64,000 nucleotides of DNA from Gemmatimonadota bacterium (GCA_965116475.1 OZ220691.1:1504001-1568000); one strand, 5' to 3'. Shown: positions 1-3,015, counted from the first letter of the stretch. Made by a program: numbers and translations. Notes: a model not told the origin generated them from the letters alone.

Positions 1-1324
1 TTACGACGATTCTCCGGCCTTCAACAAACCCGTCTTTGTGCCCATCTCCACGGAGCCCGACGTCATCCGGCGGGACACCCAGTAAGCGGACAAGCTCCAT
101 GACCCACTGGTACATGAGTACCTTGGTGGGCACGAGGACGCTCACGCGGAGTTCGGGGTGCGACTCGAGCAGCCGCTCGATGGCCAGAAGCGCCAGAAAG
201 GTCTTCCCCGCTCCCGTAACGACTTGGAGAACGCCTCGACCTCCAGCGTCGCTCCAGCAGCGGAGCGCTTCCGACTGCCAACGGTAGGGCGCCAGAGACG
301 GAGCGAGCGAGTAGTCGGATCCGGGGTGCTTCAGTTCGCGAAGGGCCCGACCTGACAGGCCTGCCCCCGAGGAGCCCAGACTCAATTCCGCCTGTTCCAC
401 CTTCCCTTCGGCGAGGTGGTCTCGTATTCGGACGAGCTTGGCCGCGTTACGGACGTTCTCGACCCGGTGTCCGAGCGAAGCGTCGTAGTCGGCGATCTCG
501 GACCTCAGGTCGGACAAGGTGCGCTGGCTGCGGTCAATTTCACTGCGGATCTCAGACTTCAGGGTCCTCGAGTAGCGGTTCGTGAAGAGCTGGTCGCGAG
601 TCTCTCGGATCGGGGTCCGTCTTCCCTTGCCACCACTCTCCCGCCACATGAAGAGTTTCGTCAGATCGATCCACTGCGATTGGTCGAGTATGTCGGTGGA
701 AAAGGGATCGATCGTGGCGAGGATGCGCTCGATCCGGTGATAAGTATCGCGTTTCCTCAGACTGGGCCGACGACGCCGTCCACGCGCTGTGACGACTCGT
801 TTTCTGCCTTGGAGTTCGACCCAACCTGCAAACTCCATGACCCGAAGCGTCTCTGAGACGGTCCGCGCTCCATGTCGATCGCCACCGTCGTACCGACCGG
901 TTCCGCCGGCCGGATCGATCTTCAAACGGTCCCAGAGTTGCGTTACGCCCAGGCCAGTTTCGGAGTTATCGAGGGCAGACAGCAGGTCGTAGGCAAGCTG
1001 AAGGCCATCTGGCCACCACCAGCACCACTTGAGGATCGTCTTGTCAACGTACTCTTCGAAACCGTCGGGCGAGCCGTCCCACTTTCCATCCCACGAAAAC
1101 CGTCCGAAGGGGAAGCGGTCGGGCGGCAGAATCCGGCGCCCGGAACGCCCCAGGAATCCGATCCCTGCAAGGTTGGAAACGAGTCCGGCGACCATCCCCT
1201 CACCGTAGGGCCGGCCGTCCTCACGGATCAGTTCTTCGCGGACCAACTTCCTGCATTCCTCCACCGTGGGCTCAGCCAGAGAGGCCTGATAACACACCCA
1301 GTACTGTGCCCTGTTGCGCGGCAT
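1..1324 (-). CDS. SF2 (DEAD/DEAH-box, Res/XPB-like) helicase with ~330 aa N-terminal extension; truncated by the window's left edge
   Basis: Not in the ORF track because it has no stop in the window. Hand translation from ATG at 1324 (MPRNRAQYWVCY...) stays open to base 2. It contains Q-motif-like LAPYRWQSEAL, Walker A VVTGAGKT (~200-223) and motif Ia VLVPTKVLMYQW. Confidence 0.85.
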   Translation of the reverse strand, partial: MPRNRAQYWVCYQASLAEPTVEECRKLVREELIREDGRPYGEGMVAGLVSNLAGIGFLGRSGRRILPPDRFPFGRFSWDGKWDGSPDGFEEYVDKTILKWCWWWPDGLQLAYDLLSALDNSETGLGVTQLWDRLKIDPAGGTGRYDGGDRHGARTVSETLRVMEFAGWVELQGRKRVVTARGRRRRPSLRKRDTYHRIERILATIDPFSTDILDQSQWIDLTKLFMWRESGGKGRRTPIRETRDQLFTNRYSRTLKSEIRSEIDRSQRTLSDLRSEIADYDASLGHRVENVRNAAKLVRIRDHLAEGKVEQAELSLGSSGAGLSGRALRELKHPGSDYSLAPSLAPYRWQSEALRCWSDAGGRGVLQVVTGAGKTFLALLAIERLLESHPELRVSVLVPTKVLMYQWVMELVRLLGVPPDDVGLRGDGHKDGFVEGRRIVV

Positions 1325-1363
1325 GGGGTAGAGCGTCGGAAGTCTGACTCCGCGGGACACCCT

Positions 1364-2182
1364 CTACGCCTCTTTTCCATCGTCTTCTGGTGGAGACGAC
1401 TCGAATGCCGTCCAGGGAGGTTCGCCGTGGTCGAACTCGGAGAGCCGCCCTACGTACAGGGGACGACAACCCTTGGTTGCTTCAATGCGCTCCCGGAGCA
1501 GTCGCAGCGTGGCGGACGCCCGGGCTTCCTTAAGGTCCTCGAGTTGCGATCGCTGAAGACGTCGAAACTGGGTCCGATGGTCCGGGTTGAGGTCACCGTC
1601 AGGCACGTTCATCCACACGCAGCCGGATTCAGTGATGTAGATCCGGCCTCCCCCCGGCCGCAGGTCCAGACAGGCTGAGACCAGGTCTGGATATCCGCGC
1701 GTTGAGGAGAAGACGTGACCACGCGACTTCCATTCGAGGCGGTTCCGCAACTGGGTGTTGGGGGAGACACGCCAATACTCACCGTGCATGAAGGGGAGGC
1801 CGGGCCAGTACATGCCCCGAGTCAGCGTTGCCGGTGCGTTGTCGATGCCGGGGAACACAAGGTCGTCTTCGTAGATTCCCACGTACCGGGGCTCCCACCA
1901 GGTGCCACCGCCCCTCAGCACCTTGGTAATCACTGCCCCGTGTGGGGTAACCCGGAACGAACCGTTGCCTCCCTTGACCGCGCGAACAGTATCGGCCAGC
2001 TGCCGTGGATATGGTTCGGCCCGGACGCTCAGAGGATCACGGTACCAGCCCACGTACGTTAGTCCCCCGCCGCGGCGTACTTTGTACCGACTGCCGCGGT
2101 ACGGGGCCGGCCACGGTTCACCTGGACGAACGGATCGGGTCTCGCCGTTGGCGCCCTGCACGTTGATCGAACGGAGTCTCAT
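1364..2182 (-). CDS. Hypothetical protein B with a two-fold internal repeat; paralog of 2182-3015
   Basis: 272 aa ORF whose start overlaps the upstream stop (TGATG). Repeat halves: GEPWPAPYRGSRY..GNGSFRVTPHGAVIT..PRYVG and GMYWPGLPFMHGEYW..RPGGGRIYITESGCVW..PLYVG. Confidence 0.8.
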   Translation of the reverse strand: MRLRSINVQGANGETRSVRPGEPWPAPYRGSRYKVRRGGGLTYVGWYRDPLSVRAEPYPRQLADTVRAVKGGNGSFRVTPHGAVITKVLRGGGTWWEPRYVGIYEDDLVFPGIDNAPATLTRGMYWPGLPFMHGEYWRVSPNTQLRNRLEWKSRGHVFSSTRGYPDLVSACLDLRPGGGRIYITESGCVWMNVPDGDLNPDHRTQFRRLQRSQLEDLKEARASATLRLLRERIEATKGCRPLYVGRLSEFDHGEPPWTAFESSPPEDDGKEA

Positions 2183-3015
2183 CAGTTGTCCTCCCGATCC
2201 AGGGCGTCTTCGTGCTCCGCGAGCGGATCGAACGGTGCCGGCGCATTGTCCTCAATCGCCTCTCCGTACTGCGACAGGAAGGCCATGAGGTCGGCTTCCT
2301 CGCCTGGAGTGAGCGGGGCGGAGAGATCGATTGCTTCATGTAGCGTGAATCCGCCCGAGTACTCACCGAGGAACACGGGCAGCAGTGCGACGTTGCGCAT
2401 CTTCACTTCGATGAGGCGCTTCTGGAGGTCCGTGAGCGCCTCGTACTGGTCCTTCATCCGCGCCGGCAACGGTTGTGGCTCAATGAGAGCGAGCACCTTG
2501 CCGTTCTCTGTGACTCGTATGGAGCCCCCGTCGGGCTTCACTTTTCGGAAGCGAGCTTCGATCTCAGCCGGCAACGTCTCCCGGGTCTTCTGCCACACGC
2601 CATCGGCGGAGTTCTTCCACCAAAGGCGACCCCCCTTGTAGGAATACCGGGCACCGTCGTAGAAGGACGGCCACAGCCCGAGGGGCGGGACGCCGCTGCC
2701 CAGGACGTCCACGGAGGCGAACTCCAAGGGGACATCGTAGTCGGCGACATACACGGCCTCCCAGGTGTCGGTCGGCATTCTGGTAAGGACGACGCCGGTC
2801 TCGGTAATGCGGAGACTCCCGCCCTCGGGCCTGAGCGAGAGGTAGGCGTCGGCGACCTCTTGGAATCCACCGGTGGCCGCGACCCTCACGGTCGCCATGT
2901 TTTGGCGGTCAGGAAGCCCCCACCAGAACTCGCCATCAGGCTTGCAGTGGTACTTGGTACCCCGGTAGTGCTCATCCCACCTGTCTCCGCAGCTCCGTGT
3001 TCTCCCTTGCGTCAC
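2182..3015 (-). CDS. Hypothetical protein A with a two-fold internal repeat and acidic tail; paralog of 1364-2182
   Basis: 277 aa, GTG start with upstream AGGAG. Repeat halves: GDRWDEHYRGTKY..RPEGGSLRITETGVVL..AVYVADY and GLWPSFYDGARY..KPDGGSIRVTENGKVL..PVFLGEY. Confidence 0.8.
   Translation of the reverse strand: MTQGRTRSCGDRWDEHYRGTKYHCKPDGEFWWGLPDRQNMATVRVAATGGFQEVADAYLSLRPEGGSLRITETGVVLTRMPTDTWEAVYVADYDVPLEFASVDVLGSGVPPLGLWPSFYDGARYSYKGGRLWWKNSADGVWQKTRETLPAEIEARFRKVKPDGGSIRVTENGKVLALIEPQPLPARMKDQYEALTDLQKRLIEVKMRNVALLPVFLGEYSGGFTLHEAIDLSAPLTPGEEADLMAFLSQYGEAIEDNAPAPFDPLAEHEDALDREDN

Follow-up and report, generated by a model that had tools for sequence, protein, structure and literature searches.

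Hachiman (HamA/HamB) is a compact defence-island operon that encodes a superfamily 2 (SF2) helicase together with a small partner. In archaeal XPB-Bax1 the motor is likewise encoded beside a partner, the nuclease Bax1. The PbeA protein of PbeABCD joins an HKD/PLD nuclease at its N-terminus to an SF2 helicase (PMC10853773, PMC6459918). We analysed a stretch of 64,000 nucleotides (nt) from a Gemmatimonadota bacterium (GCA_965116475.1; G000:C1:1504001-1568000 in the genome, hereafter the window), which opens with three genes encoding two paralogous proteins, A and B, and an SF2 helicase, directly behind a two-gene cyclic oligonucleotide-based antiphage signalling system (CBASS). With a confidence that lies a little above even, we read A, B and the helicase as a defence module that stands alone, is directed at DNA and is driven by the helicase. 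Architectures of this kind, in which a helicase is joined by small partners and optionally by a nuclease within defence islands, are known; the A and B partners and their domain appear to be new, and neither the trio nor its repeated unit is described in the full-text literature that was searched (including PMC10853773, PMC6459918 and PMC12839542).

The three described systems differ from this locus in distinct ways. The motor shares an SF2 core with PbeABCD, its best PADLOC match is PbeA (6.9e-53 for the window, 1e-45 to 5e-59 for distant relatives), and both modules occur in archaeal and bacterial defence islands. However, the match is confined to the helicase part (profile positions 248-631 of 672), the N-terminus here is a predicted winged-helix array without a PLD match, no PbeC-type (CxC) ABC ATPase or DndE-like PbeD flanks the window trio, and dndC (TIGR03183) has no match in the genome (a single 3.62-Mb contig, 96% complete). 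TIGR04095 matches at 1.4e-40, with 140 bits against a cut-off of 600. The closest solved structures are Rad25/XPB (2fwr, E = 2.9e-14) and XPBII (6p4f, 6.8e-11), and the motor is encoded beside partner subunits as in XPB-Bax1, but the XPB equivalog model NF045503 gives 47.2 bits where its cut-off is 610, A and B were unrelated to Bax1 in our searches, and the module is patchy and mobile. The likeness to Hachiman lies in a compact operon of an SF2 helicase with small partners, the nuclease here being found in NERD-A versions, whereas the HamB models match the helicase weakly (E = 6e-5), no HamA/DUF1837-like protein is present and the partner domain is without known relatives.

An A-B-helicase cassette shared by bacteria and archaea

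Open reading frame (ORF) analysis of the window placed the module genes and their CBASS neighbours all on the minus strand. Gene A (2182-3015) begins with GTG and encodes an acidic protein of 277 amino acids (aa; isoelectric point, pI, 4.8), and gene B (1364-2182) encodes its basic paralogue of 272 aa (pI 9.6); the A stop and the B start overlap in TGATG, which agrees with the translational coupling proposed in the initial annotation. The distance of 76 nt from the stop of the SLATT effector gene at 3092 to the A start, on one strand, was also confirmed. The helicase gene follows B as described, with its first 453 codons at 1-1360, and continues past the window to G000:C1:1502460 (full gene G000:C1:1502460-1505360, 966 aa). 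The spacing of about 40 nt given earlier did not hold, because the most likely start is a GTG at 1360, 3 nt past the B stop; an N-terminal motif common to helicases at distant loci, R(F/L)P..LYPMP, lies upstream of the ATG previously taken as the start. The ratio of nonsynonymous to synonymous substitution (dN/dS) was 0.13-0.38 for A, B and the helicase, each compared with three relatives, indicating that all three are under purifying selection.

To follow the gene order, we examined 36 related loci (8 species genomes and 28 metagenomes) by a six-frame profile scan. A, a B-type gene and the helicase were collinear in 27 of the 36 loci, and six more were cut by contig ends yet consistent with this order. 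Two loci (L034, L036) carried A directly followed by the helicase with the B-type gene elsewhere, and one (L038) was unrelated. When near-duplicates (L022/23, L028/29, L030-32, L021/25) are counted once, about 22 distinct collinear cases remain. The named hosts belong to Gemmatimonadota, Methanomassiliicoccales and Porphyromonadaceae (Bacteroidota); the others are halophile metagenomes, and archaeal TFIIB genes are present in many metagenome loci. At L037:1694-2687, A is split over two frames by a frameshift or a sequencing error.

The cassette also moves as a unit. The DNA common to locus L006 and the window extends only over -1534..3036 in window coordinates, which is exactly the trio (4.6 kb, 88% nucleotide identity), indicating that the trio is a self-contained mobile unit. 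Loci L004 and L005 share a longer block with the window (-4587..3033/3048), which also holds a 103-aa WYL-like gene, an N6_N4 methylase in convergent orientation and the greater part of a HEAT-repeat gene. Of 401 genomes searched in the phylum, 4 (the window's genome included) gave a match to the A profile, 3 of them among the 19 of the genus; the fourth is from another family, at about 89% identity. This patchy distribution is consistent with recent transfer.

The genes just outside the window can be seen at L002:10078-13433, where the 103-aa WYL-like gene (weak PADLOC WYL match, 7.7e-4) is accompanied by the convergent N6_N4 DNA methylase (PADLOC MTase_II, 3.4e-145) and a 642-aa HEAT-repeat protein. 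These three genes were co-transferred with the trio in L003, L004, L005 and L007, and not in L006.

Across the loci, the neighbours of the trio included CBASS, DNA methylases of three families, DpnI, GmrSD, a type IIG enzyme with a TaqI-like specificity protein, NucS/EVE-type nucleases, Dam methylase with a GHKL ATPase, AIPR with HNH, a McrB-like AAA_5 ATPase, PDC-M33A, a PbeA-like small helicase with an ABC ATPase, and a DrmD-like SNF2 operon. Restriction, methylase and other defence genes thus stand beside the trio in many unrelated genomes, and the defence-island context suggested earlier was borne out. Taken together, mobility across bacteria and archaea and placement among anti-virus genes suggest that the trio is probably a new DNA-directed defence system.

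A and B share a repeated unit and are predicted to form a heterodimer

A and B aligned collinearly over their full length by BLASTP (E = 2e-10, 25% identity), and a second BLASTP alignment paired A unit 2 with B unit 1. Each protein contains two copies of a unit of about 100 aa, all encoded on the minus strand: A unit 1 at 2710-3003 (~aa 5-102), A unit 2 at 2341-2703 (~aa 105-225), B unit 1 at 1847-2143 (~aa 14-112) and B unit 2 at 1433-1831 (~aa 118-250). In hhalign, where each E-value refers to a single pairwise comparison, the two units of A matched at 99.6% probability (E = 7e-24) and those of B at 77% (E = 2e-5); between the proteins, A unit 1 matched B unit 1 at 99.5%, A unit 2 matched B unit 1 at 98.5% and A unit 2 matched B unit 2 at 96.4%. 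The motifs YRG..Y, WP..YDGARY and (R/K)PxGGSxR(I/V)TE.G were invariant or nearly so in 21 A and 17 B homologues. These results support the proposal of two units per protein and four in the pair.

The AlphaFold2 (AF2) model of A (mean predicted local distance difference test, pLDDT, 86.4; predicted template modelling score 0.78) placed three strands, a helix and three strands in each unit. Unit 2 carries in addition a two-helix insert at aa 185-209 (H185-192 and H196-209), and is followed by a C-terminal helix and an acidic tail (2185-2331, minus strand; aa 229-277, charge -13), which ends A with a conserved PFDP...ED motif. The helical insert ascribed to both second units was therefore present in the model of A; in B unit 2 it is suggested by the alignment and by the predicted interface at aa 207-239.

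Complex prediction of A with B yielded ipSAE interface scores of 0.84, 0.85 and 0.83, whereas the best of three controls reached 0.00. The ipSAE mark is reached by 116 of 157 solved complexes and by 2 of 215 mismatched pairs, a calibration that holds roughly for predictions on custom alignments such as these. The predicted contacts agreed to 92% or better, and the partners had a pLDDT of 86 or higher. In the predicted interface, the A C-terminal helix (229-266) meets the helical insert of B (207-239). A and B are thus predicted to form a heterodimer, in line with the initial annotation. The opposite charge of the partners recurs in distant hosts, with pI values of 4.8, 5.1 and 6.0 for A and of 9.6, 9.4 and 9.7 for B in the window, the Methanomassiliicoccales locus and the Porphyromonadaceae locus, respectively.

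Neither A nor B had a match above cut-off in Pfam, NCBIfam, PADLOC 2.0 (2023 release) or PHROGs (best values 0.018-0.022, far below cut-off), and diverse members of both families likewise lacked a match for the unit in these libraries. The PDB sequences searched with the A and B profiles returned nothing, an ESM Atlas look-up with A gave no usable match, and the A model found nothing at E<=0.001 by Foldseek against PDB and BFVD. A wide VIA search with the A model gave a best Z of 3.9, a weak match to an ATP-grasp subdomain over 56 residues. Accordingly, the unit and the trio match no named system in the libraries searched, as had been supposed. Weak Foldseek rows for the A model, many of them sliding clamps, had TM scores of about 0.1 and were not credited.

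In a profile search of 1.84 billion representatives, 163 proteins were found at E<=0.001; the A family comprised 34 homologues at 90% clustering and the B family 22. The genome of the window holds no further unit copy beyond the trio. A separate family of about 225-235 aa with two units (P0140-P0203) matched the A and B profiles at 1e-9 to 4e-4, and other two-unit fusions carry C-terminal TPR repeats (P0082) or, weakly matched, an N-terminal helix-turn-helix (P0100). Two giant proteins (P0092, P0107) were rejected as A homologues, since their 28 and 10 short stretches covered profile positions 109-136 and were taken to reflect resemblance to a short repeat motif.

The helicase carries a fifth unit and a predicted fold resembling type IIS recognition domains

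The full helicase matched Pfam ResIII (2e-17), DEAD (6.6e-11) and Helicase_C (8.7e-8) over aa 358-796, all above cut-offs, and motifs I (GAGKT), II (DECH) and VI (QxxGRxxR) are intact. The start of the ResIII/DEAD motor, with motif I, lies in the window at 2-289 (minus strand; aa 358 onward). Judged by its sequence, the protein classifies as an SF2 helicase of the ResIII/DEAD type with both RecA-like domains and motifs I, II and VI.

Beyond the motor, at ~aa 857-945 and outside the window, the helicase matched both the A and B profiles. In a set of six helicases, the independent E-value with the A profile was 7.6e-6 for the window and 1.3e-7 and 1.1e-6 for close relatives, and was weaker in distant ones. 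The short helicase of the NERD lineage (L011) showed a C-terminal unit at E = 7.5e-11, 14 helicase C-termini, aligned across all clades, matched A unit 1 by hhalign at 97.3% (E = 2.6e-11), and a helicase fragment in the protein library (P0198) also contains one unit. These results indicate that one domain occurs five times in the trio. At its C-terminal end the helicase has a conserved stretch of acidic and aromatic residues, PTFEELF or a variant of it.

The N-terminal 350 aa of the helicase matched no Pfam family and no PDB sequence. The AF2 model of this region (pLDDT 76) consists of two winged helices followed by helices, and the tandem winged-helix array corresponds to 749-1339 on the minus strand (aa 8-204). 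The top Foldseek matches were BpuJI and FokI (probability 0.96-1.0, E 0.036-0.09). VIA ranked FokI first (Z 11.3, 173 residues, root-mean-square deviation 3.2), followed by N.BspD6I (9.9) and BpuJI (9.1), over 173-186 residues; BrxA (7.8) and SspB (6.8) came next, and the leading matches rank above generic winged-helix regulators (~7). Sequence identity to the type IIS recognition domains was 8-12%. In its predicted fold, aa 8-204 of the helicase therefore resemble the DNA-recognition domains of the type IIS enzymes FokI, N.BspD6I and BpuJI. In FokI-type enzymes the recognition domain is joined to a cleavage domain, whereas here it is joined to a helicase.

Nuclease-fused variants and accompanying genes

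Two loci (L011, L012) encode an A-type protein with an N-terminal NERD nuclease domain (2.8e-9), together with a 264-aa B-like protein and an 825-aa helicase that has the C-terminal unit. Four more NERD fusions were present in the protein library (P0068, P0070, P0077, P0078). The NERD-containing N-terminal ~200 aa of these fusions matched the PADLOC candidate PDC-M16A at 4.3e-25; the likeness is restricted to the nuclease part, the A/B units matching no PADLOC model. The window's A had no NERD match in Pfam, and no nuclease domain was recognised in the window trio by Pfam and library scans.

A conserved gene of 211-268 aa stands directly upstream of A in six loci (L008:879-1514, L009:9268-9903, L010:6903-7709, L016:315-959, L017 and L033:329-1006), which are archaeal, Bacteroidota and metagenome loci. 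It has the invariant motifs ELRT..RLTIAAK and YG.G..R.HP and no family match in Pfam, NCBIfam, PADLOC or PHROGs. The gene is absent in the window, and may be a fourth component missing from this version.

In several archaeal loci a second operon lies beside the trio (L021:1581-7640, L027:1-6531, L031:1-5095 and L036:519-7795). Its products are a DrmD-like SNF2 helicase, a protein of 800-1200 aa that contains internal repeats, another of 330-425 aa and, encoded at its end, a solitary B-type two-unit protein, which indicates that the unit domain is also paired with a different helicase. Additionally, a PbeABCD/CxC-like set composed of a small PbeA-like helicase, a ~680-aa ABC ATPase and a 150-165-aa protein adjoins the trio in three archaeal loci (L020:3-3843, L024:2177-6425, L035:12823-17066).

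Alternative functions of the trio

The trio could be the restriction arm of a methylation-based, restriction-modification-like system, in which a nearby methylase marks self, while DNA lacking the mark is attacked or blocked by the helicase complex. Methylases do lie near the helicase in several lineages: an N6_N4 methyltransferase within ~3 kb in the window clade (convergent, and co-transferred in L003, L004, L005 and L007), a different N6_N4 enzyme in L006, a convergent enzyme abutting the helicase end in L008 and L009, C5 and Dam enzymes in L010, and Dam methylase in L024, L035 and L037. The likeness of the helicase N-domain to restriction-enzyme recognition domains points the same way. However, no methylase adjoined the trio in L018, L020, L021, L022, L029, L031 and L036 (3-8 kb flank), the methylase families vary (N4/N6, C5, Dam) with several being part of other recognisable systems, and L006 and the window share the trio only. 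We consider this explanation unlikely. For type I/III restriction-modification proper the signs are mixed, with methylases near the trio at some loci and absent at others, and with no nuclease domain recognised in the helicase.

A role outside defence, either in repairing DNA or in replicating or maintaining a mobile element, and analogous to archaeal XPB-Bax1, would fit the Rad25/XPB and XPBII structures that are closest to the helicase, the lack of a recognised effector in the window trio, and the FtsK-like, TFIIB and transposase genes of the archaeal loci, which are typical of integrated elements. On the other hand, the module is patchy (4 of 401 phylum genomes) and recently transferred, the XPB family score of 47 bits falls far short of the cut-off of 610, restriction and defence neighbours are consistent across unrelated hosts, one lineage has a NERD nuclease fusion, and no relative was found in the viral contigs scanned with the A profile or in PHROGs. 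A non-defence function thus appears quite improbable.

Modification-dependent (type IV-like) restriction is a further candidate, in which the A/B units would read modified bases or backbones and the helicase would translocate like McrBC or GmrSD. W, Y, R and G positions are invariant in every unit, GmrSD, DpnI and other restriction systems lie close by, a methylase partner is not strict, and a nuclease is fused to A in one lineage. Against this, neither sequence nor fold linked the units to a known modified-DNA reader (the fold searches with the A model gave no SRA, EVE, YTH or PUA-like match, an absence that carries little weight), and the units are well conserved rather than diversified. On this evidence, we give the type IV-like reading little credence.

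The two CBASS genes lie outside the module, on the same strand. They encode a SLATT_4 effector with two transmembrane segments (3092-3679; Pfam 7.8e-67, PADLOC effector 2.5e-76) and a SMODS-type CD-NTase (3687-4571; Pfam 7.4e-55, PADLOC cyclase 3.6e-140). The initial annotation had left open whether the trio stands alone or serves as a CBASS accessory arm. In one metatranscriptome library, from a strain about 92% identical, a contig of 2457 nt covers CD-NTase and SLATT and reaches 2266, 750 nt into A, and a second contig covers 153 nt within B; such RNA-library contigs are no proof of transcription, strand, operon structure or a common transcript, and gaps in their coverage carry no information. 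Of the 36 loci, two, each closely related to the window, held relatives of the window's CD-NTase or SLATT, and the CBASS is shared only by L003 and L007. The DNA blocks shared with L004, L005 and L006 begin 18-33 nt upstream of A and leave out the CBASS, and in the related strain of the RNA library the 85-nt SLATT-A spacer is swapped for 87 other letters. Despite the common strand, the spacing of 76 nt behind the SLATT gene and the contig that crosses into A, it is hardly credible, given this rarity of CBASS at the loci, the limits of the shared blocks and the replaced spacer, that A, B and the helicase are accessory (Cap-like) parts of the adjacent CBASS. The stand-alone option was favoured by L006, which shares the trio only, and the adjacency seen here reflects island clustering with no functional link.

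Contigs of related strains, from DNA as well as RNA, depart from the window at 4585, a short way upstream of the CD-NTase start. Transposase genes come immediately after the CBASS genes, one of the IS481 family (5136-6062) and one of IS3 type in two parts (6246-6989 and 7133-7435). The stretch at 7500-10300 has a GC content of 0.52-0.58, compared with 0.60-0.69 around it, contains three ORFs without a Pfam match (7668-8573, 8827-9357, 9488-10222) and is probably foreign DNA. Farther along, 12583-13317 encodes an NYN-domain protein and the next gene (13323-14318) a protein that has a HicB-like antitoxin domain; this pair may be another small conflict module.

A probable DNA-directed, helicase-driven defence module

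Several points weigh against the defence module that we favour. No defence-library model matches A or B, so that defence is read from the neighbourhood, and the window trio has no recognisable nuclease or other effector. The FtsK-like and TFIIB genes in many archaeal loci make a mobile-element function other than defence possible. The loci were gathered through A-like patterns, which leaves helicases without A/B unsampled. As for the helicase N-domain, the fold match covers a largely helical array, for which Z values of 9-11 can arise from an arrangement that is widespread, the Foldseek E-values exceed 0.01, and its conserved residues have no catalytic look.

If the trio does act in defence, the three proteins would form one complex, with the A-B pair docking on the helicase through the shared unit. 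The basic units of B may contact nucleic acid, A-B would sense or license (with the nucleic acid or nucleotide of the initial annotation as candidate ligands), and the motor would translocate on DNA held by the N-terminal domain, so that the complex acts on invading DNA. In the sister lineage, the fusion of NERD, a PD-(D/E)xK nuclease, to A suggests that the complex would deliver a nuclease to DNA. In the window version, translocation itself might block the invader, as claimed for PbeABCD, or an unrecognised site or partner might cleave it. A more specific proposal, which we regard as a long shot, is that the five-copy fold makes up one sensing platform on an XPB-like translocase and that the nuclease-free form stops invading DNA by ATP-driven translocation instead of cutting it; the A tail (PFDP...ED) and the helicase tail (PTFEELF) would then serve as latches that hold or release the assembly.

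A motor protein that bears a FokI-like recognition domain may interest those who build DNA-targeting tools. The NERD-fused and nuclease-free lineages offer a natural pair for comparing how an invader is stopped with and without cutting. Should the sensing platform prove real, it would represent a new cross-domain class of helicase-based immunity and bring in a novel domain for sensing DNA or a signal. Protection against phages or plasmids, if confirmed, would make the trio a compact bacterial and archaeal addition to the defence catalogue, and with it would come a domain that has no detectable relatives in the family and structure libraries searched.

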